Of a DNA stretch of 64,000 nucleotides, positions 28,638 to 55,172 are shown piece by piece. Position numbers and translations under genes: made by a program. This DNA is from Macrotis lagotis. Its lineage: Eukaryota. Location of the stretch: the NCBI RefSeq assembly GCF_037893015.1, contig NC_133661.1, positions 187,194,809 through 187,258,808 on the forward strand, in the 5' to 3' direction. The notes beneath the pieces are model-generated. The model was not told where the DNA came from, made no database searches, and worked only from the letters and a program-made list of their open reading frames with translations. The first letter of the stretch is position 1. The number at the start of each line of letters is the position of its first letter.

Positions 28638-28912
28638 AGATCAACTGAATGTGATTAAATACTCAGGGTATGAGTGGTCATCAAAAAAAGTTACAAATAT
28701 TTTTGGCATACCTACTGAGTCAACCAAGCTATCATATCTTCCTCCTCCTGGCTTTTCTGGAGGTAATGCTATTGATGAATCACCTTTAGTGTACTCTCCA
28801 GTAAGCACACGGAACTGGAACATAAGCTTACATCCTTGGTAGCCTTTTCCACAATATTGGGAGGACAGAGAAGCATCCACTGCAAAGTAGATCCCTTGGC
28901 CATACATTCCAT
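28638..28912 (-). CDS. PARP14-like: PARP14-like gene, terminal coding exon (catalytic C-terminus plus stop): N-GMYGQGIYFAVDAS...KIFVTFFDDHSYPEYLITFS*.
   Basis: Acceptor ccttatttttatag| at 28913-28914, with 2 nt completing the codon. The PARP signature Y-G-x-G-x-Y-F-A is present. The C-terminus aligns with human PARP14 AYGKGTYFAVNAN...PSLFVAFYDYQAYPEYLITFRK. Stop codon at 28638-28640. Confidence 0.9.
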
Positions 28913-29730
28913 CTATAAAAATAAGGACTTGTTACTAAGTTTTGTATATATAACAATGTAGAAGCTAAAAATCCCTTGGGATAGGATAATTCAGGATATT
29001 GTAGGAGTAATGGCCTAACTCCTACTCCAATGTGATCTAGGATAGTTTTTTCCTTAAAAGGTATTGGGAGGGCTGAGCCTTGAGTGCTCAGCCTACTAAA
29101 GGTAGGGGAGTGGAGAGAGACTTCTGAGGTCTGTCCTCTGTACCTGGAACAGGACTCTGGGGCCCTGACCACATTTGGATCCTGATCACAGTCTAGGCCC
29201 CCCATAGAACAGCCCCCCCCCCCGCCCACCTCAGCCCTGTGACAGAAGGGTGCACTTGTGGTCATTCATAGACCAGGAGGGAAGACAGAGCCTCACACAC
29301 TGAGTTCCTTTGGGGGGGGGGGTGTCCCTATAATCCTCAAAAGCTCAGGAAGCACCCTAAAAACAGGCATGAGCTTGGGAAATGAGTAAACAGAGGAAAA
29401 AAGAGAAACCCCATTGAGAAATACATTGTCTATGATCCAAGAAGAATCAAAATACTCAATCTAAAGAAGAGGAAACACAAGCTTCTGCATCTAAAGACTC
29501 CAAGAAAAACAGAAATTGGGCTCAGGCTATGACAGAGCTCAAAAAAGATTTTTGAAAATCAAGTAAGGGAGTTAGAAGAAAAACTGGGAAAAGAAGTGAG
29601 AGAGATGCAGGAAAAACATGAAAAAGAAGTCAACAGCTTAGTCAAGGAGATCCAAAAAAATGCTGAAGAAAATAACATGTTAACAACCAGCATAGGTCAA
29701 ATGGATAAAACATTTCAAAAAGTTATTAAG

Positions 29731-29888
29731 TGGGGTGACTAGATTGCACAGTGGATAGTGCACCAGCCCTGGAGTCAGGAGTTTCTGAGTTCAAATCTGG
29801 CCTCAGACACTTAATAATTACCTAGCCGTGTGGCCTTGGGCAAGCCACTTAACCCCATTGCCTTGCAAAAAAAAAAACTAAAAAAAAG
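29731..29888 (+). mobile_element. tRNA-derived poly-A SINE nested in HAL1 copy 1 ORF1.
   Basis: TSD aaaaagttatt. Absent at the homologous position of copy 2. Confidence 0.85.
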
Positions 29889-30122
29889 TTATTGAGGAGA
29901 AGAATGCTTTAAAAAGCAGAATTGGCCAGATGGAAAAAGAGATAAGAAAGCTCTCTGAGGAAAACAAATCCTTCAGATCTAGAATGAAGCTAAAGGAAGC
30001 TGTTGACTTTACGAGAAGTCAAGACACAATACTTCAAAACCAAAAGAATGAAAAATTAGAAGAAAATGTGAAACATCTCATTAAAAAAACAACTGATTTG
30101 GAAAACAGATTCAGGAAAGATT

Positions 30123-30290
30123 ATTTATTTATTTATTTGGGTTTTTTAGATTTTTCAAGGCAATGGGGTTAAGTGGCTTGCCCAAGGCTACATGGCTAGG
30201 TAATTATTAAGTGTCTGAAGTTGGATTTGAACCCAGGTACTCCTGACTCCAAGGCCGGTGCTCTATCTACTGTGCCACCTAGCCACCCCC
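30123..30290 (-). mobile_element. tRNA-derived SINE with (TTTA)n tail, nested in HAL1 copy 1 ORF1.
   Basis: TSD caggaaagat. Absent in copy 2. Confidence 0.85.
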
Positions 30291-30463
30291 CAGGAAAGAT
30301 AACCTAAAAATTATTGGGATACCTGAAAGTCATTATCAGGAAAAGAGCCTTGACATCATTTTTAAAGAATTCCTACAGGAAAATTGCCCAGACATCCTAG
30401 AAGCAGAGGGCAAAATAGGAATTGAGAGAATCCACTGATCTCCCCTGGAAAGAGATCCAAAAA

Positions 30464-30636
30464 ATATTATATTATATTATATTATATTATATTATATTAT
30501 ATTATATTATATTATATTATATTATATTATATTATATTATATTATATTATATCATATCATATCATATCATATTATATTATATCATATCATATCATATCAT
30601 ATCATATTATATTATATTATATTATATTATATTATA
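30464..30636. repeat. (ATATT)n microsatellite (~35 units) with an (ATCAT) interruption block.
   Basis: Direct reading. Lies inside HAL1 copy 1 at the ORF1 end. Confidence 0.95.
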
Positions 30637-32291
30637 GGAATATTTTAGCCAGAAATATTATAGCCAAGTTCCAGAACTCCTAAGTCAAAGAGAAAATATT
30701 ACAAGCAACCAGAAGGACACAATTTAAATATCATGGAGCTGCAATTGGGATCACACAGTACTTAGCATCAACTACATTAAGGGCTCATAGGGCTTGGAAT
30801 ATAATATTTCAGAAGACAAAAGAGCTTGGAATACAACTGAGAATCAACTACCCAGCAAAACTGAAGGTCTTTTTCCAGGAAAAAAGATGGACTTTTAATG
30901 AACCAGAAGAATTTCAAATGTTCCTGTTAAAATAGCCAGAGCTGAACAGAAAATGTGATCTTCAAATACAGGACTCAGGTGAAGCATAGAGAGTGGAGGA
31001 GAAGGGTAAAATATGAGAGATTTAATGATGATGAACTGCATGTATTCCTGCATAGAAGAATGATACTGATAATACTCAGAAACTTCTCATTTAATAGAGC
31101 AGGTAGAAGGAGCTTTTATAGATGAAGCACAGGAGAGAGCTGAATTTGAAGATATAATATATTGTAAAAATGGAGTTAATGGCTAAAAGGGAAATGTAAT
31201 GGGAGTAAGAGAAAGGAGAGGTGGAATAAGCTAAGATATTTTATATAATAAGATTTTTTAATTACAATGAACTATTTCAATGATATGAAAGGGGGGAAGG
31301 CAAGGGGGGATGAGGCAACCTTCACTCTCATCAGAGATGGCTCGGAGAGGAAACAGCATATATACTCAATGGGGTATGACATCTAGAGTAAGAAGGAGAG
31401 AAGCGGGACAGGGAGAGGGAGAGGATGTGAGTGATGGAGGAGAGGGTGGACTGTGGGGGAGAGTAGTCAGATATAACACATTTTCCTTTTTACTTCTAGC
31501 AAGGGGCTGGGATTGGATGGCCTGTCTGGGACCACAGGGCCTGGTGGTTGCTGGGCCTTAAGGGTGGTATGTGGATTTGGGGCCTCTTGGCTCCAGGGCC
31601 AGTGATCAGTCTACTGTGCCACTCAGCTACCCTACAGCATATTTAAGAAGAGGGACAGAGTGAAAGGTGAAAGAAAATATAGTGTATGGTAGCGGGGAAG
31701 TACAAATGGAGGGAGTTGTGATCAACAATGGCAACAGTGGAAAAATGTGGAAGTAGCTTTTGTGATGGACTTATCATAAAGAATGTGATCCACCAGCAAC
31801 AGAGCTAGTGGTGTTGGGACACAGACTGAAGTATATTTATTGTTATTATTATTATTATTATTAGTAGTAGTAGTAGTAGTAGTATTAGTATTAGTATTAT
31901 TATTTATTTTGGTTTTTGGGGAACACTGGGGTTGGGGTGACTTGCCCAGGGTCATACAGCTGAGTGATTGTTGGGTATCTGGGGCCGGATTTGAACTCGT
32001 GTGCTCCTGGCTCCAGGGCCGGTGCTCTGTCCACTGTGCCACCTAGCTGCCCCTATTATTATTTTTTTATTTAAATTTTAATTATTTTCTCTTAACTTCA
32101 TTGATCATGAGGGTCTGTCTATATTTTTGGGGGAGGGGGTATTATATTTACTCTTAAATAGGAATATTTTAGTAATGTATAAAAACATCATTTGTACAAA
32201 AATAAAAATAAATAAAAAACAAAAAAAGAGAGAGATAATTTAAGAATAATTGGACCAACTAAAAGTCATGATCAAAAAAAGGTACTGGGAA

Positions 32292-32452
32292 GGGTGGCTA
32301 GGTGGTGCAGTGGATAGAGCACCAGCCCTGGAGTCAGGAGTACCTGAGTTCAAATCTGGCCTCAGACACTTAATAACTACCTAACTGTGTGTCCTTGGGC
32401 CCGTAACCCCATTGCTTTGCAAAAACCTAAAAAAAAACCCAAACAAACATAA
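32292..32452 (+). mobile_element. tRNA-derived poly-A SINE.
   Basis: TSD aaaggtactggga and aaaaggtattggga. Confidence 0.85.
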
Positions 32453-32854
32453 AAGGTATTGGGATCGTTCTCAAGACTTGCTTGGCACAGGGAATTAAGG
32501 ACTCAAACTATTGAAATTACTTTCTGGCTGCTGATAGAGCAAACATGAAGATCTTTTGGAGATCTGATGGTTGGCTGGTGGATGACAATGGGCAACTCAG
32601 GCAAGGGAGACTTGCCTAGCTTAATCAACTAGAGGGATCCTCAAAATCTTTCCTCATTAAATAGCCTTCTTTAGCCATGGCTAAATAAATCTCCTTTGAA
32701 TGACCAACAAGTATTTCATTTAGTTTCATTATCGAACCTAAACTACCAGGGGACAGGTGTGGTCACACCAAACCAGAATGCAGAAAAATAAGCCTGAATT
32801 TCAATCATTTTAGTAGCATTAAACTCTACCCTCTCTCGGTTGTGGCCTACTCAC

Positions 32855-33026
32855 TTTTCCTACAGGTGCTTTTTAGTCCATTTTCAATGATGGATGAGCA
32901 GTTCTGTCTTGGTGTTCCATGAAAGAGGAACTGCTCATTCTGCACTCCTGGAGGATTCTTTTTCTCCATCCAGTTCCTTTTGTATATATAAGAGGTCCAG
33001 AGGTATGGGTTTTGGATCCTTTTTAT
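32855..33026 (-). CDS. PARP14-like: PARP14-like gene, catalytic exon carrying the H-G-T motif: IKRIQNPYLWTSYIYKRNWMEKKNPPGVQNEQFLFHGTPRQNCSSIIENGLKSTCRK.
   Basis: Acceptor cattatttag| (33027-33028). Donor AGGAAAA|GTGAGT (32853-32854). Aligns with human [41 protein letters not shown]. Phase 0 in, +1 out. Confidence 0.85.
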
Positions 33027-33289
33027 CTAAATAATGAAATCAAAGAGAGAGCCTGGTTATCATTCAAATGAAATTAATATATTTTCTAGGAATATTTTGT
33101 TTTCATAACACCCATATTTCCAAATGATATTTAAATGAATGAACAAGTAACTCCCAACTCCATAGCTATTTTTAGAGCTAGGAAGATTTAGACTTCCTCC
33201 TTCAATAGTTAAGTCCTTTGAACCTTGTGAAATTAGAGATAGAGAATAGGAGGTTAGATTTCTAATTTTTGATTATTTCACACATCAAT

Positions 33290-33440
33290 CTGATGTGGTG
33301 GAAACAGCTGGCATGGAATTAGGAGGCAAAAGACCTAGATTCAAGATCTGTTTCTATCAGTTATGTATTACTGAGCAAGTTGCTTCCTCTTTCAGGACCT
33401 TAGTTTCCCCATTTATAAAATAAAGTATATGAATTAGATG
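33290..33440. repeat. MIR-type SINE.
   Basis: ttagtttccccatttataaaat core. Confidence 0.6.
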
Positions 33441-33685
33441 ATGTCTAAGACCTCTTCCAGTTCCTCAATAAACCCAGTACAGTATAAACTCAAAACCTAC
33501 TTAGGAGAAAGAAAGTAATTGAGAGAAGAGAGATAATAATAATAAATGTAAAAGAGACAATAATGAATGTAGGGATAATTATCTCTATAATATGTCTATA
33601 AGATTATAATAATGTTTTGTTCAGCAGTGTTTTTCTATATGCTGAATTAATGAGCATAAACACCTTTTCATTAAACATAATTCAC

Positions 33686-33822
33686 CTTAAGGATGGTGCT
33701 GTTGTTCATGGAGCACTTGAACTTCTTGGCTACTCTTTCATACTCCATCAGATTTGGTGAGAGTTCCACAGTCTTCACTGGGTCATCATTCATTGGTTCC
33801 CACTGTTGAGGGATACTCATCT
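33686..33822 (-). CDS. PARP14-like: PARP14-like gene, first PARP catalytic-domain exon (137 nt): E-MSIPQQWEPMNDDPVKTVELSPNLMEYERVAKKFKCSMNNSTILK.
   Basis: Acceptor ctttttgtaatag| at 33823-33825. Donor ATCCTTAAG|GTGAAT at 33684-33685. Aligns with human PARP14 [44 protein letters not shown]. The phase links to the WWE exon (+1) and to the next exon (phase 0). Confidence 0.8.
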
Positions 33823-35633
33823 CTATTACAAAAAGTTGGAAGTATCTTTAGAATCTTAAATGAAATCTGTGAGCTTTTCTATTTCTTTTATTAGGAAACT
33901 TTATTTTTTTCTTTTCTAATACATTTTTGTTCTATTTTGTACTGTAGCTATTTGTATATGTAACAAGTCTAATCTTGGTCATACCCACCAGGAGACAGAG
34001 AGAAAGAGAGAGAGAGTTGGGTAAAGGAGTTAATTATCCAAATTCCCAGTTCTACCTAGTGAAATTAGAGATTGAAATGGGAGATTAGATTTTACTCTGT
34101 CCTTTATTCTAACTTGATTTTTTTTCACACATGAATCTGGTATAGTGGAAACAGCACATTGGCCTGGGAGGCAGACAATGACTGCCATCTTAAGGTTGAA
34201 GGGTTAAGATGAGGAAAAAGGAATCCATTACAAGCATGAAGATACAAAAGTGGTAGCCCTTATCAGACCCCAGAGAGGACCCATTAGGACAAACCACAAG
34301 GAGAAGCTATTTCAAGCAGTCAGGGACTGAATTAGAATGAATGGTGATCCTGCAGGGTGATCCTGTGATGATAAGGAAGAAACCTGAACTTCTGTTCAAG
34401 TATGAACCAGAAAGAATGACTGGTGCATCCTTTTCTTTCTTCTCTTTCCCACTATTCAGGAGGGGTGCCAAATGTATGGTGAGTTATTTACTCATTTTAT
34501 CCTTGCCAGGCTATTTGAAAGACTGGAGAAACAAGAAACAAAGGAAGAGACTCAGGAAACTTTTGTCTTTCTCTCAAATGCTCCCTTTTATTTCTAAACT
34601 GTGAAAACGTGATTATAAGAAATCCCCAGTAAACCAATAAACACTGAAATTGTTTGTTGTATTTAATTTAATATTCAGATAAAGTTCAAACTGAAAAAAA
34701 CACTTCCTTTTACTAGATCTGGTTTAATTGAGCCAAATTGAGACTGGAACTAAGAAGGAAGACAAGAAGAGGGATTGGTATTAGACTTTCACAAACCATT
34801 ACAGATGAGGAACTCAGGCAAAGAGGGTAAAGTGACAAAGCTCAGGGTCATACAACTAGGAAGTATCAGAGGTCAGATTTGAAGTCAGGAAGGAGAGTTT
34901 TCTGACTTCACTCATGGCTCTCTATCCACTGTACCATCTAGCTGCCCAAATCCAAGATCAAACTACTGTAAAATTGTTGCTGTTTATGTTGTTATTATTG
35001 GGGGTATTTTTTTGGCAACAAGACAGAAACAATGTATAGCTGAGAAATAAAAGTTACTATTTCAGAGAATGACTGAAGGCCTTCCTATCATAGTTCAAAA
35101 ACCACTAATATTTGAGAAAAATAGAGAGCATCAGTTGCTCAGGTGCTTTAGACTAGCACAACCAGAGTAACCTAACCACATTATTGGTGTCTAAACTTAA
35201 CTTGTTCACCACTGCCCCTTGGCATATATGGATGGGCATAGGTTACACTTCCCTACTTGAATATTAAGTGTATTTCCCCCAACACCTAGTGCTGTTTTCC
35301 TAAATAAATGATGTGCCTAATAAATATTTGTTGAAATAAATATTGAGAATTTTCTAGAAATGGTCAGCTGCCATTTTGTCCAAGGATATAAGAAGAAAAG
35401 TTTTTATTATTGGAACTACACAGTCCTATATTCAAAAAAGCACACTTGCCTTCAAGATATTTATATGCTTTTCTTTATTCCTTAGATGAGTTTTATTTCC
35501 TTCTGAATTTGGGAAGTAGTCTGTTATCTGGCAAAGGCCCTTTATAGCCCTATAAATAGTAAGCACTTAGTAAATGTTGAATTGAGTGACAATATTAATT
35601 TCTGAACTCTTAATAACTTAAAGATTAGAGTAT

Positions 35634-35778
35634 TCTTTGTTTTTGTGGAGCAATGAGGTTAAGTGACTTGCCCAAGGTCACACAGCTAGTAAGTATCAAG
35701 TGTCTCAGTCCAGAATTAAACTCAGGCTCTCCTGACTTCAGCACCAGTGCTTTATTCACTGCAACACCCAGCTGTCCC
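35634..35778 (-). mobile_element. tRNA-derived SINE (older copy).
   Basis: Family body. Flanks tagagtattcttt and tagaatattcttt. Confidence 0.75.
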
Positions 35779-36133: not shown

Positions 36134-36600
36134 TCTATGGTATTATCAGTTACAGTTTTGCTTAATGTTTCGGAAAATGTCCTGGGGGTGGTGTTATTTA
36201 GGTGTTTTAGGGAAAGTGTTCAGATACAATGTATTAGCAAAAATAAAATAAAGGGATTAGAAGGATTGGATAAAGTGCCTTTTGGATTTTCAGTGGACTT
36301 TTATTTATGTTTCGGCTAGTATAAGCATTTGGGAAATTGACTTGCTAGAGCACCCCAGAAAAAAAACAGTGCAGGACAAGGTAACAACCACCAACTCAAA
36401 TTTCCAATTTGTGGAGTTCCATAATATTGTCCAGAATCATACTAACAACTATGTCAATGATCACTTCTCTCACTCCTATTTAAGAGGAATTTATTGAGGA
36501 ATTTATGCATCTGGGAAGGAATGAGAGCTTTTAAAAAGGGACACAGTCAAGAAAACCCTGATTAAGTAAGAAATGAAAATTAAAGGCAGGGAGAACTTAC

Positions 36601-37125
36601 CCCATATGCAGATTTCTCTCTTTATTTGAAAGACTATCTGGGTGTCTGGCACCAAACCTTCCCTCTTCTTCAGGTTGACCTGGGCTCTTCTAGAATCTAG
36701 GATAATTTCAACATTTTCCTCTTCCTTCCTATATGCTGTTTCCAGTTTTAGGTTTGTACTTTTGTCAAAAGGCAAAAGAACTGTGCTCCCAATGTTATAC
36801 TGCCATTGAACCACTGATTTCAGGGCTTCAGCTGCTATATCTGAGTTCTGAGCTTGGATGAGAGTTTGGACAACAGTGGCAGCTTTCTTCACATCTTCCT
36901 GAAAGCCCTGGATTTTTAAGAGATTCCCATGATGATGTAGATTGAGAGGGAAATAGTATCCCTGATCCAAGACCTCTCGAAGACAGTCTTCACTGAAAGT
37001 GATTATTTTATCACCGTTCAATGTTTCACTGTAAAATCCATTCATAAAGTCTTCCAAAACTTCCTGAAATTTGGCTAAACTCACCTCCCTACCCAATACT
37101 TGAACTAGTCCTAGTGGAGAGTCAC
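36601..37125 (-). CDS. PARP14-like: PARP14-like gene, WWE-domain exon (525 nt).
   Basis: Acceptor tctctctgttctcag| (37126-37127). Donor ATATGGG|GTAAGT (36599-36600). TFSEDCLREVLDQGYY..LN and VVQWQYNIGSTVLLPFDKSTNLKLETAYRKEEENVEI..RRAQVNL align with human PARP14 YTSEDECIKDFDEKEYQELN and EFIEWQYNDNN..FNKMTNLKLEDARREKKKTVDV..HYTVNL. The phases are consistent (2+3n+1). Confidence 0.85.
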
Positions 37126-37573
37126 CTGAGAACAGAGAGAAGAGATTTATAATAAGTTAAATACCATAAAATCTTGAAAAGAAAATAAAACCTGACCCAT
37201 TCTAACCCCATGTTCCCTATGAAGAGGCTAGAATAATGGGATATATAAGGAAAGGTTAAAAGAATTGAAATTACTTAGTCTGAAAAAGGCTGAATAATTG
37301 CATTCAGTTTTTGAAAGATTAGCTTAGAAAATATATGTCTATAGAAATATATGTACATATACATATATTTCTATAGAAAAAGGCAATAACAATTTTCTAA
37401 TTTAACTGATAGGGAAAATGAATGGTATTTGAACTTTAGCATATTTAATCAATGGTAATAAAAAGATGAGGTTTAATTTAGAGGAAACTATTACTTCCTT
37501 TTTCACCAATTTCACTAACTGAATTAGTGTATAGTCAGTCATCAAAGGAGAGTTAAAAGATTAGATTTTAGAT

Positions 37574-37579
<6 letters not shown>

Positions 37580-37634
<55 letters not shown>
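37580..37634. repeat. (CT)27 microsatellite.
   Basis: Direct reading. Confidence 0.95.
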
Positions 37635-37638
<4 letters not shown>

Positions 37639-38678: not shown

Positions 38679-38739
38679 CAAGAGCAAAATGTTCTTTTCT
38701 GTGTCTCCTGAGAAGCTTCATCAGCTCATGGACAAATGT
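38679..38739 (-). CDS. PARP14-like: Candidate small macro-domain exon (61 nt; TFVHELMKLLRRHRKEHFAL).
   Basis: Strong acceptor (ttattctttctttctgttag|) and donor (|GTAAGGGGG) 61 nt apart. One frame is open. The phase (+1) matches the next candidate exon 75 nt downstream. Weak similarity to the macro-domain helix preceding the SIAxPAIxxG motif. Confidence 0.4.
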
Positions 38740-38814: not shown

Positions 38815-38974
38815 TTTTTTTTAGTTTTGGGTTTTTTTTTGGAAGGCAATGGGCTAAGTGGCTTGTCCAAGGCCACACAGCTAGGTAATTATTAAGTATC
38901 TGAGGCCAGATTGAACTCAGGTACTCCTGACTCCAGGGCTGGTGCTCTATCCACTGTGCAATTTAGCTGCCCCT
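38815..38974 (-). mobile_element. tRNA-derived poly-A SINE.
   Basis: Family consensus, reverse orientation. Confidence 0.8.
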
Positions 38975-39068
38975 GAAAAGATATTTCTTTTGACTTCTCT
39001 AAGGGATCCTAAGTTTCAGACACTTATAAACTTCCATTTCATTTTTTTTGTTTGTTTTTGTTTTTGTT

Positions 39069-39248
39069 TTTTTTTTTTCAGGTTTTTGCAAGGCAAATGG
39101 GGTTAAGTGTCTTGCCCAAGGCCACACAGCTAGGTAATTAAGTGTCTGAGACCAGACTTGAACCCAGTTACTCCTGACTCCAAGGCCGGTGCTTTATCCA
39201 CTACTCCACCTAGCTGCCCCCTCACTATGCCACCTAGTCGCCCCCCCT
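39069..39248 (-). mobile_element. tRNA-derived poly-A SINE with a partial duplication of its head end.
   Basis: ccacctagctgccccctcactatgccacctagtcgccccc. Confidence 0.8.
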
Positions 39249-41031: not shown

Positions 41032-41034
<3 letters not shown>

Positions 41035-41063
<29 letters not shown>

Positions 41064-41956: not shown

Positions 41957-44641
41957 GAATTGATGATTCTGGTGGAGCCAAGATGGTGACAAGAGAGCAA
42001 CGTCTCTTAGAAGCTCTCTCATAAAACTTATAAGCTAAGGACTCTAAGTAAACTTTCAAGAGACAGAACCCACAGAGGGACCCAGTGAGGCAGTTCTCCT
42101 ACTCAAGGTAACCTGGAAAAGAACAGAAAGGCTCTGCTCCCCCGGGTCAGAGGGGTGGCCCACCAGAGCAAAAGAAATTCAGCCTCCAGGAGGCAGTCCC
42201 AGGGAGCTGGGAGCCGCGGCTCACAGTAGCGGGGGGAGTTTCCTGAGCTATGCCCTGGGAAGCACCGGGTACAAATTGGGGGAACAGCAGGGGGACCTCT
42301 GCCAGAGTGAGCACATGAAGCCCAGCCCTCAGGGCACACAGCGAACAAGTGGTCTTTCCCCAGCCCAGATCCAGGAACAGAAGCAGGCAGAGCCAGTAAG
42401 CAGGACCCCCAGGGCATGAGCCCATTGAACCTAGCGGAGGGGAGTGAAGAGAGACTGCCCAGCTCTGTCCTCTGCCCCTGGAAAAGGACCCTGGAAAAGG
42501 ACTCTGGGGTTCTGACCACATTCAGATCCTGATCACAGTCTAGGCCCCCCATAGAACAGCAGGGCACCCTCCACCTCAGCCCCATGACAGAGGGGGGCGT
42601 ATATGGTCATTCACAGACCAGGAGGGAGGACAGAGCCTCACACACTGAAACCCTTGTGGGAGTGTCCCAAAAGCTCAGGAAGCACCCCAAAACCAGGCTC
42701 AGACTGGGAAAATGAGCAAGCAGAGAAACAAGAGGAAGACCATTGAGAAATATTTTCCATATGAACCCAAGAAGGATCAAAATACTCAGTCTGAAGATGA
42801 GGAAGCACAAGTTCCTGCATCTAAGGACTCCAAGAAAAACAGAAATTGGGCTCAGGCTATGACAGAGCTCAAAAAAAGACTTTGAAAATCAAATGAGGGA
42901 GTTAGAAGAAAAACTGGGAAAAGAAAGGAGAGAGATGCAGGAAAAACATGAAAATGAAGTCAGCAGCCTAGTCAAGGAAATCCAAAAAAATGCTGAAGAA
43001 AATAACATGCTAAAAACCAGCTTAGGTCAAATGGATAAAACAGTTCAAAAAGTTATTGAGGAGAAGAATGCTTTAAAAAGCAAAATTGGCCAGATGGAAA
43101 AAGAGATAAGAAAACTCTCTGAGGAGAACAAATTCTTCAGACAAAGAACAGAACTCAGGGAGACTGATGAATTTACAAGAAATCAGGAATCAATACTTCA
43201 AAACCAAAAAAATGAAAAATTAAAAGAAAATGTGAAATATCTCATTGAAAAAACAACTGATATGGAAAACAGACTTAGGAAAGATAATTTAAAAATTATT
43301 AGAATACCTGAAAGTCATGATCAGGAAAAGAGCCTTGACATCATTTTCAAAGAATTGCTACAGGAAAATTGCCCTGATAGTCTAGAAGCAGAGGGCAAAA
43401 TAGAAATGGAGAGAATCTACCGATTGCCCTGAGAAAGAGATCCCAAAAAACCAACCCCTAGGAATATTATAGCCAAGTTCCAGAACTCCCAAGTCAAAGA
43501 GAAAATATTACAAGCAGCCAGAAGAACATAGTTCAAATACTGTGGAGCTGCAGTCAAGATCACACAGGACTTAGCAGCAACTACATTGGAAGCTCATAGG
43601 GCTTGGAATATAATACACCAGAAGGCAAAAGAGCTTAGAATGAAGCCAAGAATCAATTACCCAGCAAAACTGAATGTCCTCTTCCAGGAAAAAAGATGGA
43701 CTTTCAATGAACCAGGGGAATTTCAAATGTTCCTGTTGGAATGGCTAGAGCTGAACAGAAGGTTTGATCTTCAGATATAGGACTCAGGTGAAGCATAGAG
43801 ATTGGAGGAGAAGGGGAAAATATGAGGGACTTAACGATGATGAACTGCATGTATTCCTGCATAGAAAAATGACACTGATAATACTCATATGAACCTTCTC
43901 AGTTAATAGAGCAGGTAGAGGGAGCTTTTATAGTTGAAGCACAGAAGAAAGCTGAATTTGAAGATAAAATATGGTGTAAAAATGTAGTCAATAGAAAAAA
44001 AAGGGAAATGTGATGGGAGAAAGAAAAAGGAGAGGAGGGAATAGGCCAAGATATCTCATATGATAAGTTTTTTCTTTAGTACAATGAGCTATTGCAATGA
44101 TATGGAAGGGGGGAAGGCAAGGGAGAATGAGGGAATCTTCACTCTCATCAGAGGTGGCTAGGAGAGGAAACAGCATATATACTCAATGGGGTATAGACAT
44201 CTAGAGTAAGAAGAAAAGGGGGGACAGGTGGAAGGGGGGGGATGTGAGTGATGGAGGAAAGGATGGACCCTGGGGGGAGAGTGGTCAGATATAACACATT
44301 TTCCTTTTTACTTCTAGCAAGGGGCTGGGATTGGATGGCCTGTCCAGGACCATAGGGCCAGGTGGATGCTGGGCCTAAGGGGTGGTAGGGGGCTCAGGGC
44401 CTCTTGGCCCCAGGACCAGGGATCTGTCTGCTGTGCCACTCATCTACCCTACAGTAGAGTCAGAGTGAAAGTAGAGAGAAAATATAGTATACATGGTAGT
44501 GGAGAAATATGAAGGGAGGGAGTTGTGATCAGCAATGGCAACAGTGGAAAAATATGGAATCAACTTTTGCAATGGACTTACCATAAAGAATGTGATCTAT
44601 CCGCGACAGAGTTGTTGGTGTTGGAACAAAGACTGAAGCAC

Positions 44642-44687
<46 letters not shown>

Positions 44688-45204
44688 TGGGGGGGTGCAG
44701 GGCAAATGGGGCTGGGTGGCCTGCTCGGAGCTACATAGTAGGGTGATCTTTGGGTGTCTGAGGCTGAATTCGGACCCAGGTGCTCCTGGCTCAAGGGCCA
44801 ATGCTCTGTCCACCACCCAGCCACCCCTACTACCATTATTACTATTTTTATTTTATTTTGGGTCTTTTTTTTCTTTTTTTTTTTTTGGTTTTTGCAGGGA
44901 ATTGGGGTTGGGGTGGCTTGCATGTCACACAGCTGGGTGATTGTTGGGTGTATGAGGCCAGATATGGGCTCGGGTTCTCCTGGATACAGGACTGGGGCTC
45001 CGTCCATTGCGCCATCTGGCCATACCTACAATTATTACTATTATTTTTTATTTTAATTTTTTTTCTCCCCTTTACTTTATCGCTCAAGCGAGTCTATATT
45101 TTGTGGGGAGAGGGGGTATTCTGTTTACTCTTAAACAAGAATATTTTATTAATGTATAAAAAAACATTATTTGTATAAAAAGAGAATAAATAAATATAAA
45201 AAAA
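41957..45204 (+). mobile_element. Half-L1 (HAL1-like) composite element, copy 2.
   Basis: Composition in order: L1 5' end (ggtggagccaagatggtgac...), a GC-rich 5'UTR, ORF1 (42893-43432, 179 aa, coiled-coil ORF1p-like, terminated), a ~1 kb non-ORF2 tail, (TTA)n, two SINE-like modules, and an A-rich tail. Flanked by the TSD aagaattgatgattct at 41940-41955 and 45207-45223. Confidence 0.7.
44645..44688. repeat. (TTA)n microsatellite internal to HAL1 copy 2. Its homologue in copy 1 is (TTA)n(TAG)n at 31846-31896.
   Basis: Direct reading. Confidence 0.9.
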
Positions 45205-45223
45205 AAGAATTGCTGATTCTTGC

Positions 45224-45390
45224 GGGCGGCTAGGTAGCATAGTGGATAAAGCACTGGCTTGGAGTCAGGAGTACCTGGGTTCAAATCCAGACTCAGACAC
45301 TTAATAATTACCTAGCTGTGTGGCTTTGGGCAAGCCACTTAATCCCATTTGCCTTACAAAAACCTAAAAAACAAGAAACAACAACAACAA
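45224..45390 (+). mobile_element. tRNA-derived poly-A SINE inserted about 15 nt into the intron after the donor of the 45413-46796 exon.
   Basis: TSD gaattg(c/a)tgattctt at 45209-45223 and 45396-45410. This is the same target as the TSD of the adjacent HAL1-like element. Confidence 0.85.
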
Positions 45391-45412
45391 AAAAGAATTG
45401 ATGATTCTTACC

Positions 45413-46796
45413 AATTCAGTTTTCTCCTTACAGGCTGAGACCTCAGAGGACAAAGAATTTGTAGTTTCTGGCACTTGAATCTTCACCAAACATTGGAGTT
45501 CTTTAGCAAAAGTGAAAAGAACTGTGGCTCCAATCCCAGAAAGGTATTCTTGTACTCCTCTGTGCCATACAGGGATGCTTCTCACAGTCAATAAATCTAG
45601 ATCAGCTTGAACAACTCCTTTGGCCTCTTTTACATGTCTTCTCAGTCCTTTTAGTTTCAAGGTTAAAGTAGAATGACTCGTCTGAATCCAAATATTCACC
45701 TTTAAGTCTCCCCAGTTCATTATCTGAAACAGATTTTCTTTTGCTTCAGCCAGTTCTGGTCGAGGGGAAATAATTCTGTCTTCAGTAATTGAATAACTCA
45801 TCAAATATTCCCTAATATTGGTCTCTGCCTCAGTTACTTCAACCCTAGTGCCCACTATGACCACTGAAGTCAAGATATCTTGCAGTGATTTGACACTATA
45901 AAAAGTGACTTTCTTTTGACTTCTTAGTGCTATCAGTAGAGCTTCCCATTCCAGGCCATTGACTGCCCACTGGACCTCTTCCCCTATATCAACCTTCTTC
46001 TCATAAACTAAACTCTTCAGTAAATTTTCTGCTTGAACCAGTTCTCCAAAGTCAAGCCCCCAAATCCCAACTCCATCAGAAATGTTCAACACTGCTGAAA
46101 TATCTCGAGCAAGGAAAAAATTTTCATTAAAGAGTTCTTCCTGGAGGCTTTGGATAAATTGCACTTGGAATGGGGAAAGTGAGACTGGCCAGTTCTTAAA
46201 ACCAACCAGCAGACTATAAAACTGCTTCTCCACCTCAAGTACATCTTTTCGGCGCCCCTGAAAAGTGATCATACCAAAAGGACCTTCCTCCAAGGTTATA
46301 GAAACTGGAGTGTGAGGAAAAATAAACATTTTGTTTATTGTGTTTTTGACCACTGTGTATCTAGGCAGATGGAGAATAGGATGTTCCACACACACTGGCT
46401 TTTCATTGAAAGTCATTTCCTGAACATATTGTAAAAACATCTTCACTGCCTCAGTTGGCCCTACAAAGCGTGGACCTTCATATTCTCGTATGGTTGCAAA
46501 AGACTTCACTAACAATGGTTGTTTTTTTAAAACATTCAGAATATCTGAGTTGTTCTCATAGTGAACAGCATATCTCTTCTTAATTTTCTGAAAAGTATCC
46601 TCCACAGCTTTCTCCCAGTTGGATGGGTCTAGTTGTTCCCCTTCTGCTAAAAATTTAAGCACTCCCAAAGAAGCACAAGTTTGGAATACACAGTCTATCT
46701 TCCTTAAGTCTTCTTCAAACTCTTGGAAAACAATTGGGGAGTCATTAAGGTACTGGACAAAAGCTGGGTCTTCTTTCTGACAGAGACTAATGACTT
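45413..46796 (-). CDS. PARP14-like: PARP14-like gene, second large coding exon (KH-like / pre-macro region).
   Basis: 434-codon open frame. Acceptor ttttcctttctcctag| lies at 46797-46800. Donor AAAACTGAATTG|GTAAGA lies at 45411-45412. PFQVQFIQSLQEELF...FLARDISAVL and ITFQGRRKDVLEVEKQ regions align with human PARP14 SPEIFQFLQQVNWKEF...FIAQKILAL and LCLKGPSADVYKAKCEIQ. The ORF-track tail LLLLFLVF is read-through into an intronic SINE poly-A. Confidence 0.75.
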
Positions 46797-46879
46797 CTAG
46801 GAGAAAGGAAAACAGTGTTGACCTGAAGGGTTTAATTAAAAATCAATTTTCTTAGTCTTCACTCTTTTCATTTATAGTA

Positions 46880-49212: not shown

Positions 49213-49450
49213 GGAGGCAATCACGGTTACGTGACTTGCCCAAGGTCACACAGCTAGTTAGTGGCAAGTGTCTGAGGCCAGATTCAAACTCCTGTTCTCC
49301 TGACTTCAAGGCCAGTGCTCTATTCACTGCACCATCCAACCAACCATCTTCTGCTAAGTGTGACTTGCACATAGCTAGTAATTATTAAGTATCTGAGCCA
49401 GATTTGAACTCAGGTTTTCCTGATTCCAGGACCAGTGCTCTCTCCACTGA
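49213..49450 (-). mobile_element. Two adjacent diverged SINE fragments of the same family.
   Basis: ttacgtgacttgcccaaggtcacacagctagttagtggcaagtgtctgaggccagattcaaactc.... Confidence 0.6.
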
Positions 49451-50547
49451 CCCTTTAGTTTTTCTTTCTTTTGCCTTACTAACTAGTAAGGATAGAAGTT
49501 GAAAAGTAAAGCATGAAGTATTTCATAACTGCAATAGGTACATAGATTTCTGTGACCTTTAGTCTAAGGCCCTTGGAAGTGTGAGGAAGTAAGTTAAGAA
49601 GTACCATATTAATAAACATAATAGATTAAATGAAAATTTTGAAGACAGGAAATGTTTGTGAATGAGAAGAAGCATGAATTCTCTGGAAAACTGAATAATG
49701 TCAACTCTATGAGATTCCCACTTTACTTACCAGGAGGGGTTCTGAAAACTTCAGTCACCTGAAAGGGAAAGAAAGAAGAAATCTTACATATTTAAAACAA
49801 ATAAAGATCAAGCAAACAAAAGAAACTATGCCACTTAATAAACATTGAAGCATTGCATCTCTCTTCTAGAAGGCTCTAAAAGTCTCTGGATTTGACTGTG
49901 TAAATAAATATAAATAAATAAATACTTAAATACTTTTATATTTGTCTTCTCAGGTACCCTCGGCTCTTAGACATTAGATCTACAATTACAAATCAACAAT
50001 CTGAACAGGTGACAATACTATGCACTTAATGTCATTGACTTTTATTTTTATTATTGTTTCTGTGGGGGAAGACTCATATTTAAAACCTCAGTTGACTCTG
50101 GTCCATCTCCAATCAGCAATCTACTGAACTTTGAGAGAGGATAGCCATCTGTCCTCAAACTCCCTTGCTTAGATTCCACCAGTAGAGCTCTATTAATTTG
50201 CATTAACCAGATTTTTCCATTAAAATGCAAATCTGCCTAAGAGAAGTAATACACTCATCTAGGCAATTAAGTTTTTCACACTTACAGTGTGAATTTATTT
50301 TACCAGGTTGAATCACTCCAAAAAGCTAAGTGAGAGTAACATTGCCCTTGGGGAAAGGAAAGTTGGCACAGAAAGGGGGGGGGTCTGACTTTGGAGCAAA
50401 GGAACAATTCAGAAAGCAAAAACTAGCGATACTGGGGCTCCTGATAATAAGCAATTGAGGACCCTGGGACTAAAACAGTGGTGGTATCAGAACTGTACAA
50501 GACCCAGAAAAGAAAGATTTAAACTTTTGTCTAAAGTATCTCTATCA

Positions 50548-50727
50548 GGGCAGCTAGGTGGTACAGTGGATAAAGCACCAGCCCTGGAGTCAGGAGTCAG
50601 GAGTACCTGAGTTCAAATCCAGCCTCAGACACTTAATAATTACCCAGCTGTGTGGCCTTGGGCAAGCCACTTAACCCCATTGCCTTGAAAAACTAAAAAA
50701 AGCTAAAATAAAAAAATAAAGTATCTC
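50548..50727 (+). mobile_element. tRNA-derived poly-A SINE with an internal 7-bp duplication (gagtcaggagtcagg).
   Basis: TSD aaagtatctctatc. Confidence 0.85.
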
Positions 50728-51678
50728 TATCCATGATGGTTGGTATTGGATTCACTGAAACTTTACCTTCTGAGGATTGGTTGCTCTTAAGGGCTGTACT
50801 ATCTGTACTAGTTTCATCCATGTATTTGGTTTTTGTTTTATGAAGTTATTGATCTCTTCTAACATAATGTGCAAGGGATTGGAATTCCCAGGAGTCTCCA
50901 GGTCTAACATGGGAAAGGAAATGGATTCCAGAAAAGAACCAAGGAAATTCTTCAAGCAGTTCCAGATCACCTGCTGAATGACCTGTTGAAATATGTAACA
51001 ATCATGATATTTAAAGTACTTATAAATATAATTACAACAATTTATAACTCTAGTTAAAATGCAAGAATATGTAGCCTGTCTGTCTCCATAAAAATGTCTG
51101 CTCTTTGGTGGGAAGCAACAGAAGCTGGGGCAAAGGTTTATATGGGAAGCAGGATCAAGCATATGGGATGTACTTTGGCAATCGTACCCATGTTGCTGAT
51201 TCAGTATATACTTAAAAGGAAGACACAAGGAACTGTTAGAGGAAGTAGGAAGTTGCCAGAGTTGTATATGTGTCAGGAAAAGGACCATAAAGCACTTCTG
51301 CTCCTGAAGTTCAAGACATTTTTGTATGTTACCCCATTCCTTCAATCAATATAAATTTACCTACAAAATGTTTAGGGTACAATGGTGGATACTATAGATA
51401 CAAAAACAGAAAAGACAAAATTCTGAACCTCATGGAGAGGCTAACCTGCTTATTGTCTAGTTGGTTAGATGAAATGTGCACATGTAAAAAATTAACAATC
51501 TAAGATAAATATAGCAATGGACATCAAATCCATGAGAAGTTGTTTCTCCTATGTAGATTAGATCAAAGTAAACAGAAGGGAAGGAAAGACTGATAATGGG
51601 CAGGAAGTTCCCACTAACTGTACTTCATTAGATGATGTTTAGAAAAAACAAACATTATTCAAAATAGTAAAAAAAAAG

Positions 51679-51683
51679 CACAC

Positions 51684-51744
<61 letters not shown>

Positions 51745-51745
51745 G
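51679..51745. repeat. (CA)n(TA)n compound microsatellite.
   Basis: Direct reading. Confidence 0.95.
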
Positions 51746-51941
51746 TATACATATTTGAAGCAATAGGGAAGGAACAAGTAGATAGAGGGGAAGTTCTGTC
51801 TTAATTATTTAGTTCATCATTTTATACAATTTTGGAGACACTGGGAAACTGGAAATAGCCCTGCATTAAGAGGGATTTAAGAGAGTCCCTTCCAGTAAGA
51901 TCTCACCCATCTGACTCCTCTATAAAAGGCAAATAAACAGG

Positions 51942-52105
51942 GGGTGGCTAGGTGGCATAGTGGATAAAGCACCGGCCCTGGAGTCAGGAGTACCTGGATT
52001 CAAATCCATTGTCAGATACTTAATAATTACCTAGCTGTGTGGCCTTGGGCAAGCCACTTAACCCTGTTTGCCTTACAAAACAAAAAAACCTAAAAAATAA
52101 AAGGT
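51942..52105 (+). mobile_element. tRNA-derived poly-A SINE.
   Basis: Flanks aaaaggcaaataaac and aaaaggtagataaac. Confidence 0.8.
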
Positions 52106-53444
52106 AGATAAACTGAAGGGCACTCCAAGGTGCTCAGACAACTAAGGGTCTTAAGTGAAAATGTGAGATCAATTTATAAACATGAGTGGCCCCTAGACTA
52201 CCAGTCCTACTTTCCACAGCCATTATCCATTTCTATCCATAGGAAAACAAATATCTATGGGACAGGTAAGTCAATCTAATTAAAGTAGTAAGATCTCCCA
52301 AGGAAAAGACAGGCTTTGATATGTGTCGGACAAATCAGGTCACCACTACCACCTTCCCTCAGACTCCAAAGAAGATAACCACTGGCCTAAACCCAAGAGC
52401 CATAGGAATAGTTGTACTCCAGATCATTGTTTCTATCACAGGCTCCACAGCCATCATGGAAAGGAGCAATTGTTGTTAAATTCCTTATCATTGTTACCAA
52501 CACAAATTGCTGACCAACCTCCACTGATAGGCAGATAAACCTAAGAGTCCCAGTAGAGGCAGCACACACTATACCCTGGTTTTGCTTCTAGCCCAGCCCC
52601 TAAAGTCATCATCCTGGGGATTCTCTGCAGATGCAACTTGGCAGCTACTTTTACAGCTACTACAACCTGGCCTCAGCACCCACAAGAATTAAAGGTGTCA
52701 AGAAGAAAGTTCTCACCTTCAAAGCTCTTGGCATTGTAAAATAATTAAACATCAGAAACAAAGATGATTTTATCAGTAGAAATGACAATAAAAATGCATT
52801 GCCATCTGCTTTGCTGCTGCACCCCAAGGACAATGGGACCTTTCCACCTGACTTGAAGCTGAACATCCGAAATATGAAGTCTCCTCCTTTATAATGTGAG
52901 TTCCTTGAGAACAAGGACTGTTTTGCTTTTTCTTTTAGTAACAATGCTTTAAACATAGCAAAAGCTTAATAAAATGTCTTTTAATTCATTCATATTCAAA
53001 CAAACATTAGGCCAAACCTGGTGCTGTTGAACTAATCCTGTATCTAGGCAGATGATATATAGGACCTGGCAATGCAGACCAGGCAAGCTAGAAGCAGGAA
53101 TGGTAATGATGTTTCCATGGAGGAGATCCTGGGGATCAAGAATGTTCTCCAATTCTTCCTGGACCTGGGTAGACATCTCCTCGACCCAACTGCTATTGTG
53201 GGACCCCAGAATCCAAGGGAAAACCACCACATCAGTCTGTGGACAGAAGAAAAGCCCAGGAAGAAAAAATAATGAAAATAATTCATAAAAATTAAGATAA
53301 ACATCCTCTTTAAAAGAAAATTTCCATAAGTTAATAAAATTCTAAATCATTTTCCCTCAGTCTTGAGGTTACCAGAGACTTCCATTCCTCTTTCCCTTAG
53401 CCTAAATGGGCATGCTTTGTATTATAAGAAATCCTCATAGAGGG

Positions 53445-53594
53445 GCGGCTAGGTGGTGCAGTGGATAAAGCACTGGCCCTGGAGTCAGGAGTACCTGGAT
53501 TCAAATCCGATCTCAGACACTTAATAATTACCTAGCTGTGTGGCCTTGGGGAAGGCACTTAAGCCTGTTTGCCTTGCAAAAACCTAAAAAAAAT
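53445..53594 (+). mobile_element. tRNA-derived poly-A SINE.
   Basis: TSD aaatcctcatag. Confidence 0.85.
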
Positions 53595-53894
53595 CCTCAT
53601 AGAAAGTCTATAGTATTCTTTTGTCACCTGTTACATATCTCATAGTCTTTGCTGACTAGATATTATTTCTAGTGTCTACTTTGTTTTGTTCTATTCTCAA
53701 AGGAGATCGTACATACTCTGAATCCCATACGGTATTTAAGAACTGTTAGATTTCTCTTTATCCATGGTTCTTTTAGCTTTTCCCAGATCCCCATTACCCC
53801 CACTCATCATCCCTATGGATCAGTCATGGACTCTTTCCAAGGCTGCATTTGGAATATTGACCTAAGGGAAACCAGACACAATAATGACTACTTG

Positions 53895-54049
53895 GGGCAG
53901 CTACGGTGGTGCAGTGGATAGAGCACCAGCCCTGGAGTCAAGAGTACCTGAGTTCAAATCCAGCCTCAGACATTTAATAATTACCTAGCTGTGTGGCCTT
54001 GGGCAAGCCACTTAGCCCCATTTGCCTTGCAAAAACCTATATAAAAAAA
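53895..54049 (+). mobile_element. tRNA-derived poly-A SINE inserted 13 nt into the intron after the donor of the 5' large exon.
   Basis: TSD aatgactactt at 53883-53893 and 54050-54060. Donor gtaagtag preserved. Confidence 0.85.
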
Positions 54050-54062
54050 AATGACTACTTAC

Positions 54063-55172
54063 TTTCTGAGTAATGATGTTTCCAACCACCACCTGCGTTG
54101 TTACAGCTTCCCAGGAGCTCATGATGTAGGGAAGGAGGACATGATGATCCTTTCTCTGGGACCACCACCTGCAACATTCCACCTCACATTCAGCTATAAA
54201 GTCATTATCATTTCCTGCTAGAGTAAGATTCCTTAGGCGGCTCCCTTTGGACTGCAGGCTCTTAAAGTCCTTGACTCCTACAATGATCCCTTTTGCTAGG
54301 GCTGCTGGACCAGTGGAATGAATCACCAATGAAGCACTTTTCTCCTGGGTTGCAACTTGAAGGGCCAAAGTGATAGCACTGGCAATCAGTTCCTGGTTTT
54401 CATTCATAGCAGCTACATCCCTTCTGGAGCTATGCCCAGTCCAAGAGGATGACAGCATCACTTGTAGGAGCACCTGGGGAATACCTCGCTCATTCAGGAT
54501 ATGCTGCCTCTGCACTTTTACCCTGGGAACTGTTTTGACCTCATTTTGTCTGTCCAGTGGCCTACAGGTAAGACTCATGGTAACTGAGGTTCGGAATGTA
54601 GAAGCTTCTCCTTTCCAGAGAGAGAGACTAAGGCCATCTCCTACCTGGAAGAAACCACTCATCCATCTTTGCTCTTGAATCAGGCCAGACCATGGGTTCA
54701 TTTTCACAGTGGAACAAAGAAGGATCATCAGTTTACTGATGGCAATCTTGGCATTAGAGACCACTTCATGGGGACCAAAGAAGGAAATGATTGCTGAGTT
54801 CTGGTTTAGTTGCCAACCAATTTTCACCTTCCAGAGAGACAAATCCAATGTTCCCTGTAGGACCTTCCATAAATGGAGCTCCTCAGGGGTCACAAAGAGA
54901 GTTTCATTTGTTCTTGGAGATCTCTGAAGGTAATCTAGCACCAACCAGTTTTTACTCTTCCTACTACATGCTGAGGAGTCTCTTGCTGGTCTCCCTGAGA
55001 CTCTTATGGAAGGATCACAAGAGGGTTTGATTATTTCCAAGTTGAATCTAGACTTCTTTAGATCTTTATCATCTGAGACACTTTCGTAACAGGTTCTTAG
55101 ATGAGGACCATTGTAGGTCACAGATCCTGACATGTTTGAACCAACCTTCTTACTTCTACCTCCAAAATTCAA
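54063..55172 (-). CDS. PARP14-like: PARP14-like gene, 5' large coding exon (N-terminal region). In-frame ATG at 55131-55133 (MSGSVTYNG...) is a possible start. Exon ends ...VVGNIITQK with donor GTAAGT at 54062.
   Basis: 1.1 kb open frame on the minus strand ending at a consensus donor (cagaaa|gtaagtag). KNWLVLDYLQRSPRTNETLFVTPEELHLWKVL aligns with the human PARP14 N-terminus ([24 protein letters not shown]...FFYPEDVRQKVL). FIAECEVECCRWWSQ aligns with EINDEMRRCHCELTWSQ. Human sequence is recalled from memory. The 5' boundary and true start are unresolved. Confidence 0.6.

Follow-up and report, generated by a model that had tools for sequence, protein, structure and literature searches.

Does the bilby, Macrotis lagotis, carry an ordinary PARP14 gene at this locus, or a macro-PARP of a different kind? 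Interferon induces PARP14 and related ADP-ribosyltransferases, which are in conflict with the macrodomains of viruses; the mark that they set is read and erased by macrodomains of their own. The locus lies in a 64,000-nucleotide stretch of contig NC_133661.1 (NCBI RefSeq assembly GCF_037893015.1, positions 187,194,809 to 187,258,808 of the forward strand), referred to here as the window, with all positions counted from its first nucleotide. The gene on its minus strand, LOC141521955, is with a probability of about 0.8 an intact and selectively maintained member of an unnamed family of PARP14-related paralogues, present in marsupials, reptiles, and amphibians and with relatives in lungfish, gar, and shark. 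The domains of its product are ordered as a disordered N-terminus, a KH-like domain, two degenerate macro folds, eight KH domains of which the seventh is split, a PARP14-type WWE domain, and an ADP-ribosyltransferase (ART) domain with an H-Y-I triad.

Gene model and relatives

The window is eukaryotic in composition (~37% G+C), with many fragments of short interspersed nuclear elements (SINEs) and of L1. Between 28.6 and 55.2 kb its minus strand holds four long stop-free stretches of 403, 197, 492, and 217 codons, accompanied by shorter open frames, and the length of these four stretches is far beyond chance in such AT-rich DNA. Pfam searches of single frames detected a PARP catalytic domain (32850-33026 and 28644-28931), a Parp14-type WWE with a PARP14-like eighth KH domain (36506-37156), and, below threshold, PARP14 KH matches (45367-46842). 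The final model joins ten coding exons on the minus strand from 28641-55133 and encodes 1361 amino acids with zero internal stops; all introns are GT-AG and the splice phases are consistent throughout. The product matches RefSeq XP_074091079.1/80/81 ("uncharacterized protein LOC141521955 isoform X1", Macrotis lagotis) exactly over its full length, so the gene is complete and already predicted, yet unnamed and unstudied. Met1 is the ATG at 55133, which is kept in three other marsupial homologues.

An earlier note on this DNA, made from the letters alone, had described an apparently complete, multi-exon, minus-strand PARP14-like gene at 28638-55172. The RefSeq identity and the ten GT-AG exons bear out a PARP-family gene that is complete and lies within that span, and the peptides quoted there (FLFHGT, GIYFA, KIFVTFFDD, and DYLQRSPRTNETL) are all found in the sequence. 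Its exons were correctly read from splice sites on the minus strand, but the count of about seven and the length of about 1190 amino acids fell short, with the micro-exons at 49731-49758 and 38679-38739 missed, and its gene start at 55172 gives way to the conserved ATG. Both micro-exons (4 and 6) have good splice sites and were found by aligning the model to the Petaurus, Sarcophilus, and Monodelphis proteins; micro-exon 4 is needed for the exact match to XP_074091079.1, and the micro-exon 6 peptide TFVHELMKLLRRHRKEHFAL pairs with Petaurus TSAHELLKVLRRHRNEHFAL. A first model of eight exons (1318 amino acids, alternative splice sites, no micro-exons) was dropped after comparison with the marsupial proteins. 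Human PARP14, PARP9, and NXF1 sequences guided the location of candidate exons only, and no conclusion uses them. A word-indexed protein search with exon 1 and with the KH exon returned no match, though the identical full-length protein sits in the same collection; this null is a limit of the index on exon-sized queries and no sign of absence.

Relatives of the full-length protein are readily found. In a HMMER scan of the N-terminal 951 amino acids against 1.84 billion representative proteins, a sugar glider (Petaurus breviceps) protein of 1365 amino acids, itself labelled "uncharacterized protein", aligned in a single stretch from residue 1 (76% identity). This orthologue (1365/1366 amino acids) is collinear over its full length at 76-78% identity, its gene has the same ten-exon structure in exon count and order, and the two loci align in nucleotides across the introns and about 10 kb of flanks. 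Pairwise identity among bilby, sugar glider, Tasmanian devil, and opossum is 73-78%. Entries of the same family include XP_068953802.1 (Petaurus), A0A7N4UZA8 (Sarcophilus), A0A5F8HDU9 (Monodelphis), XP_053115008.1 (Hemicordylus), XP_033779518.1 (Geotrypetes), and A0A7M4FZD3 (Crocodylus), all of them collinear over their full length, with the same domain order and the ART motifs FVTFFDD and RYDSLVD, and none with a Pfam Macro match. The reptile and amphibian entries are 31-36% identical to the bilby protein, and those of Hemicordylus and Geotrypetes align with it in a single stretch. The same architecture is found in squamates, turtles, crocodilians, and a caecilian, with more distant relatives in lungfish, gar, and shark; among the close relatives that could be named, none was eutherian or avian. 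Close relatives are labelled "uncharacterized protein", "Poly [ADP-ribose] polymerase", or, loosely, "PARP14", "PARP14-like", or "PARP15".

A tree of ART domains and the gene neighbourhood bear on how this family is related to PARP14. In a neighbour-joining tree of ART domains (no bootstrap, limited sampling), the marsupial sequences recover the accepted species tree and group with proteins of squamates, turtles, crocodilians, and a caecilian; eutherian PARP15 and other PARP14-like sequences lie outside this group. The Petaurus orthologue stands head-to-head with a gene for a 2626-amino-acid TROVE/NACHT/WD40 (TEP1-like) protein, 9.7 kb upstream, instead of with PARP9/DTX3L. The 64-kb bilby window contains no other PARP gene by tblastn and no further long open reading frame, DTX3L not having been specifically searched for.

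Selection on the coding sequence was estimated with the Nei-Gojobori method for bilby versus sugar glider. The overall ratio of nonsynonymous to synonymous substitution rates (dN/dS) is 0.42 (dN 0.118, dS 0.280), with regional values of 0.30 for the ART, 0.21 for the WWE, 0.48 for the KH array, and 0.37 and 0.57 for the two macro folds. These values indicate purifying selection, most stringent in the WWE and the ART, yet the gene evolves fast for a vertebrate protein, a combination that fits an immune role.

Domain order and macro folds

An AlphaFold2 model of amino acids 503-1169 (mean predicted local distance difference test score, pLDDT, 83.5) contains eight type-I KH units, the seventh split and the eighth with a long helix entering the WWE. 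In the split KH7, about 40 residues of low confidence (956-994 of the protein, encoded by the end of exon 5 and the 61-nucleotide micro-exon) interrupt the fold behind the fourth element; in the model they are local residues 454-492, with pLDDT <50, between the two KH7 halves. The WWE was detected with Pfam WWE_1 (PF22005; 30.2-33.3 bits, cut-off 27) and the eighth KH with KH_PARP14_8 (PF23254; 28.8 bits, cut-off 27), while other KH models stayed sub-threshold. With Foldseek, the best match of the WWE was the PARP14 WWE 1X4R (probability 1.00), followed by other WWE domains, and the KH region matched several multi-KH proteins and KH arrays. Human PARP14 has a split KH that holds three macrodomains, a further KH with an elongated helix, and then the WWE and ART (Suskiewicz et al., PMC10450202). 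On the predicted structure, the bilby protein retains the PARP14 KH scaffold, and the macro insertion point holds a mere linker.

The earlier note had expected a largely unplaced block of macrodomains between 37126 and 45412. Since the two halves of KH7 are separated by only about 40 disordered residues, there is no such block to be found, and the searches agree: the minus-strand open frames of at least 28 amino acids in that intron (4.5 kb of translation) gave zero Pfam match, and tblastn with six Pfam-Macro-bearing PARP15-like proteins found nothing in it. In a gecko homologue the end of exon 5 is continuous with exon 7, and the exon 5-exon 6 intron includes a bilby-specific insertion of about 3.4 kb (41970-45393), with no counterpart in the sugar glider locus. 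The expectation was a reasonable analogy to PARP14, applied to a gene that does not have the module. Two PARP14-like shark proteins bear on how this came about. In P0029 (2132 amino acids) one region is homologous to bilby residues 70-934, in P0024 (2317 amino acids) one to 353-933, and both carry canonical Macro domains downstream of the homologous region and before the WWE. This suggests that the tetrapod family may have arisen through loss of the internal macrodomains.

The macro folds of the bilby protein lie at its N-terminal side, in exons 1-3 (50.8-55.1 kb). Pfam Macro (PF01661) has zero match to the protein even at E<=1 and is likewise unmatched in the lizard, caecilian, rattlesnake, lungfish, and gar relatives; the evidence comes from other comparisons. 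For fold B (amino acids ~340-500, the end of exon 1 and exons 2-3), human PARP14 macrodomain 2 takes the first three places among the PDB sequence matches (E 0.03-0.3), collinear across the three exons, and the region also matches genuine Pfam Macro domains in library proteins P0038, P0063, P0066, and P0029. The exon 3 loop reads SFLESISFPMLDLETPGNSNP against SLKSIAFPAIGTGNLGFP in PARP14 macrodomain 2, with DLETPGNSNP in place of GTGNLGFP at the second phosphate-binding loop. Fold A (amino acids ~155-345), compared with the PDB as a ten-sequence profile, matched only macrodomain proteins (E 1.5e-4 to 7e-3), including a bacterial ADP-ribose hydrolase (1.5e-4), macroH2A1.1 (3e-4), a PARP15 macrodomain (1.7e-3), and PARP14 macrodomains 1-2 (2.4e-3); relative to canonical macrodomains it has a deletion of about 40 residues. 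Similarity of exon 1 to NXF1/TAP (PDB E about 0.07-0.09) was judged to be chance, the profile and fold searches giving a macro fold.

An AlphaFold2 model of amino acids 1-511 (12-sequence family alignment, mean pLDDT 63.6) shows a disordered N-terminus (1-69), a KH topology at 75-142, and then two alpha/beta domains. The best Foldseek match of this half in the PDB is the macro1-macro2 tandem of PARP14 (3VFQ; E 3.8e-14, 387 columns), followed by PARP9 macro2, macroH2A, PARP14 macro2, and PARP15 macro2, so that by predicted fold the protein is a macro-PARP. Because Pfam Macro fails and the loop is altered, the folds are termed degenerate or "pseudo", and they presumably no longer bind ADP-ribose.

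Within the N-terminus, the earlier note had read DYLQRSPRTNETL (54897-54935, minus strand) as a diverged form of a motif, YFQS.K.SGGGEC, of human PARP14 and DTX3L. The peptide spans the end of the predicted disordered region, the PARP14 RRM families of Pfam have zero match to the bilby protein at E<=1, and homology to the PARP14/DTX3L RRM motif is unsupported by these comparisons. What is conserved from marsupials to lizard is the element (N/T)ETL(F/Y)(V/I)TPxE (NETL[FY]VTPEE), which forms the first strand of the KH-like domain.

Set against the human macro-PARPs, the protein is a mixture of likenesses. With PARP14 (ARTD8/BAL2) it shares the eight type-I KH domains with a split seventh and an eighth whose long helix runs into a diverged WWE, a mono-ART with an H-Y-hydrophobic triad, and the presence of macro folds; PARP14 is interferon-induced, and the bilby gene has a conserved element resembling an interferon-stimulated response element (ISRE; see below). 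However, the bilby protein has neither N-terminal RRMs nor macrodomains in its split KH7, its macro folds number two rather than three, lie N-terminal to the KH array, and fail Pfam Macro, its length is 1361 rather than about 1800 amino acids, its KH region is only about 20% identical, and the neighbourhood differs, with a TEP1-like gene beside the Petaurus orthologue. The relatedness to PARP14 that had been proposed therefore stands, through the WWE and KH8 by Pfam and the 1X4R and 3VFQ matches, while orthology and architecture fail with the missing RRMs and KH7 insertion: LOC141521955 is not a PARP14 orthologue and does not have the PARP14 architecture. PARP15 (ARTD7/BAL3), described as a eutherian partial duplicate of PARP14 (PMC4038475), offers the best-scoring solved ART, two macro folds, and an H-Y-L/I triad, but has no KH and no WWE, and its macrodomains bind ADP-ribose. 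PARP9 (BAL1) shares two tandem macro folds after KH-like sequence, followed by KH and ART, and its macrodomain 2 is among the best structural matches, but its triad is inactive, it has no WWE, it has a single C-terminal KH, and its functional macrodomains lie inside a split KH.

Catalytic domain, ISRE-like element, and alternatives

The Pfam PARP domain is detected above cut-off in exons 9 and 10, and the triad consists of His1250 (32919-32921, FLFHGT), Tyr1280 (28887-28889, GIYFA), and Ile1343 (28698-28700, KIFVTFFDD), with no glutamate. A PDB search with the spliced ART placed human PARP15 at the top (143 bits, query 2-193, about 47% identity) and human PARP14 second (127 bits, query 18-192, from shorter constructs), followed by PARP12, ZAP, and PARP10. 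The earlier note had named best reciprocal hits to another PARP as evidence against its assignment, and this holds in part: among solved ART domains PARP15 does outscore PARP14, with the shorter PARP14 constructs qualifying the difference. The catalytic domain belongs to the PARP14/PARP15 clade. The alignment to PARP15 chains pairs FLFHGT with LLFHGT, GIYFAV with GTYFAV, and PKIFVTFF with PKLFVVFF, and sets Ile1343 opposite the triad leucine, in agreement with the glutamate-less H-Y-I reading put forward before. That reading does not set the gene apart: the triads of 42 PARP14-like ART domains compared include 17 HYI, 17 HYM, and 3 HYL, which makes H-Y-I the ordinary state of the clade. All four marsupials conserve an intact triad together with HGT and YFA, and LOC141521955 is predicted to encode a mono-ADP-ribosyltransferase without the chain-elongation glutamate, like PARP10, PARP14, and PARP15.

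Upstream of the gene, the ISRE-like element GAAACGAAACTGAAA is matched nowhere else in the window and in none of 100 shuffles (0 expected), and the sugar glider carries GAAATGAAACTGAAA at the same offset from the ATG. In sequence it is a textbook core of the ISRE or interferon regulatory factor element (IRF-E). A GT donor (ACTTG/GTGAGT) follows about 95 nucleotides downstream, and a short non-coding first exon probably has its promoter at the element. Conserved and unique in the window, the element makes it plausible that LOC141521955 responds to interferon.

PARP14 is interferon-induced, mono-ADP-ribosylates proteins and phosphorylated nucleic-acid ends, and has KH domains that bind RNA, with KH8 binding DTX3L (PMC10450202, PMC11080071, PMC11251020). 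By analogy, an interferon-responsive LOC141521955 protein, guided by its KH array to nucleic acids or protein partners, would add a single ADP-ribose to its targets, and the degenerate macro folds would act as a scaffold, not as ADP-ribose readers or erasers. Unlike PARP14, the protein is thus probably unable to read or erase ADP-ribose via macrodomains.

Several points weigh against this account of an intact, maintained paralogue and its proposed role. The RefSeq models are computational, the AlphaFold2 model of the macro half is moderate (the mean pLDDT of 63.6), and the loss of ADP-ribose binding is read from sequence, namely the Pfam Macro null, the altered glycine loop, and the deletion of ~40 residues in fold A. 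Interferon control depends on one conserved motif at an uncertain distance from the true transcription start. The first 150 codons have a dN/dS of 0.8-0.9, which may reflect relaxed constraint there. The ART tree is a neighbour-joining tree without bootstrap and without bona fide marsupial PARP14 and PARP9 sequences, and so paralogy to PARP14 is carried mainly by architecture and gene neighbourhood.

PARP9 has lost the triad histidine, in contrast to the H-Y-I of the bilby protein, and it provides the model for a different reading in which the gene is functional but mainly non-catalytic, a scaffold or regulator of other PARP/DTX3L complexes with the ART kept for NAD+ or partner binding. A PARP14 KH8-like domain is kept above the Pfam cut-off, human PARP14 KH8 binds DTX3L, and some functions of human PARP14 are independent of catalysis (PMC11080071), but the intact H-Y-I, HGT, and YFA, conserved in four marsupials, and the place of the ART among the most constrained regions leave this reading unlikely. 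Still less can be said for a decaying duplicate or pseudogene whose frame has stayed open by chance. The degenerate macro folds, the dN/dS of the first 150 codons, and an identity among marsupial orders of merely 73-78% would suit decay, but a 1361-codon frame with all introns canonical, a start, a stop, and ten exons (count and order) shared with a species of another marsupial order, a dN/dS of 0.42 overall and 0.21-0.30 in the WWE and ART, and an architecture that persists from caecilian to marsupials make it very improbable. A canonical marsupial PARP14 orthologue, with three ordinary macrodomains in unplaced exons of the 37-45 kb intron, would fit the PARP14-like WWE, KH8, and ART and the position of the exon 5-exon 7 intron, where PARP14 carries its macrodomains, but is already refuted for the bilby locus, barring extra macro-coding exons in long-read cDNA, by the empty Pfam search of the open frames of at least 28 amino acids in that intron and the empty tblastn search with macro-bearing PARPs, by a product spliced without macro exons that is exactly the RefSeq protein, by the collinearity, again without macrodomains there, of the orthologue in Petaurus and the homologues in gecko, lizard, and caecilian, by the bilby-specific origin of about 3.4 kb of the intron, with its L1 ORF1-like frame, and by the missing RRM and the TEP1-like gene, not PARP9/DTX3L, adjoining the Petaurus orthologue.

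The reading preferred here, an unnamed family of PARP14-related paralogues, has a broader and more tentative form, which is a possibility short of an even chance: a distinct vertebrate PARP lineage, an ancient sister of PARP14 kept in marsupials, reptiles, and amphibians and missing from eutherians, in which the internal macrodomains were lost by deletion and the N-terminal pair degenerated into pseudo-macrodomains. If this is true, interferon would control a natural "reader- and eraser-less PARP14", whose comparison with PARP14 could reveal what macrodomains contribute to antiviral ADP-ribosylation. The family retains the PARP14 KH array, WWE, and an active-looking ART without internal macrodomains and with the remaining pair degenerate, which makes it a natural experiment on the purpose of these domains. 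The macro-PARP repertoire of marsupials and reptiles differs from that of eutherians, and human PARP annotation should be transferred to these species with caution. It is well documented that PARP14-like genes duplicate and turn over their domains (PMC4038475, PMC13224862), and the gene is already in RefSeq, so the finding is no surprise in kind.

Coordinates, neighbourhood, and minor features

Table 1. Positions within the window of the coding exons of LOC141521955, the upstream element, and other features
Feature	Position	Strand	Content
ISRE-like element	55789-55803	minus	GAAACGAAACTGAAA; 670 nucleotides upstream of ATG
Coding exon 1	54063-55133	minus	amino acids 1-357; ATG 55133; predicted disordered N-terminus 1-69; first strand of macro fold B; stop-free 403 codons; donor CAGAAA/GTAAGT
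KH-like domain (exon 1)	54708-54911	minus	amino acids 75-142, predicted
Degenerate macro fold A (exon 1)	54144-54662	minus	amino acids 158-330, predicted
Coding exon 2	53018-53236	minus	amino acids 358-430; middle of degenerate macro fold B (predicted); acceptor CAG/ACT, donor CAG/GTTTGG, both ends phase 0
Coding exon 3	50767-50982	minus	amino acids 431-502; C-terminal part of macro fold B (predicted)
Coding micro-exon 4	49731-49758	minus	28 nucleotides; VTEVFRTPP + 1 base; strong acceptor, GTAAGT donor
Coding exon 5	45412-46796	minus	amino acids 512-973; KH1-6 and first half (beta-alpha-alpha-beta) of split KH7 (predicted); stop-free 492 codons; Pfam KH_PARP14_4, 6 and 8 below threshold
Coding micro-exon 6	38679-38739	minus	61 nucleotides; TFVHELMKLLRRHRKEHFAL + 1 base; short low-confidence insert in split KH7
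Coding exon 7	36601-37125	minus	amino acids 994-1168; second half of KH7, KH8 with long helix, WWE (about 36611-36826)
Coding exon 8	33686-33822	minus	amino acids 1169-1214; start of ART; aligns to PARP15
Coding exon 9	32855-33026	minus	amino acids 1215-1271; ART with FLFHGT; His1250 codon 32919-32921
Coding exon 10	28641-28912	minus	amino acids 1272-1361 and TGA 28641-28643; ART with GIYFA, KIFVTFFDD
TEP1-like fragment	12828-13197	minus	two adjacent open frames in different reading frames; Pfam Beta-prop_TEP1_2nd
L1 ORF1-like frame	42893-43432	plus	179 codons, coiled-coil; within the insertion 41970-45393
Fragment similar to L1 ORF1-like frame	29930-30172		
SINE-like family one, examples	18539-18687, 21542-21685, 38834-38974, 39061-39220		about 130-150 nucleotides
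SINE-like family two, examples	22549-22681, 24748-24880, 53894-54026		about 130-150 nucleotides
Simple-sequence tracts (intronic)	about 51660-51800, about 37500-37600		(TG/CA)n, (GA/TC)n

The coordinates of the gene and of the features around it are collected in Table 1. Fifteen kb downstream of the PARP gene, an isolated fragment of a TEP1-like beta-propeller, about 70 amino acids long, matches Beta-prop_TEP1_2nd over profile positions 186-226 (E 1.4e-12) and 229-255 (E 2e-4). When more TEP1-like exons were sought around 11.7-14.7 kb, just this one fragment was found. The full TEP1-like gene of the sugar glider lies on the opposite side of the orthologous PARP gene from the bilby fragment.

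Some database entries of the family are shorter isoforms that skip the KH-array exon. Among the isoforms of orthologues are P0011 (Sarcophilus, 708 amino acids), P0093 (Monodelphis, 877 amino acids), and P0095 (bilby isoform X2, 1298 amino acids). In the numbering of the eight-exon model, those without the large KH-array exon lack E4 alone in opossum, whereas the Tasmanian devil form lacks E4 to E5. Skipping of the KH-array exon keeps the frame because micro-exon 4, exon 6, and exon 7 have phase-1 ends, and these isoforms may be an annotation artefact or may come from genuine alternative splicing that takes out the KH array.

Two abundant SINE-like repeat families are scattered in the introns and flanks, and the sugar glider locus contains copies of both, at positions that are not orthologous. 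The bilby-specific insertion contains an L1 ORF1-like coiled-coil frame on the plus strand, and the intronic simple-sequence tracts translate as CVCVCV from (TG/CA)n and as ERERER from (GA/TC)n.

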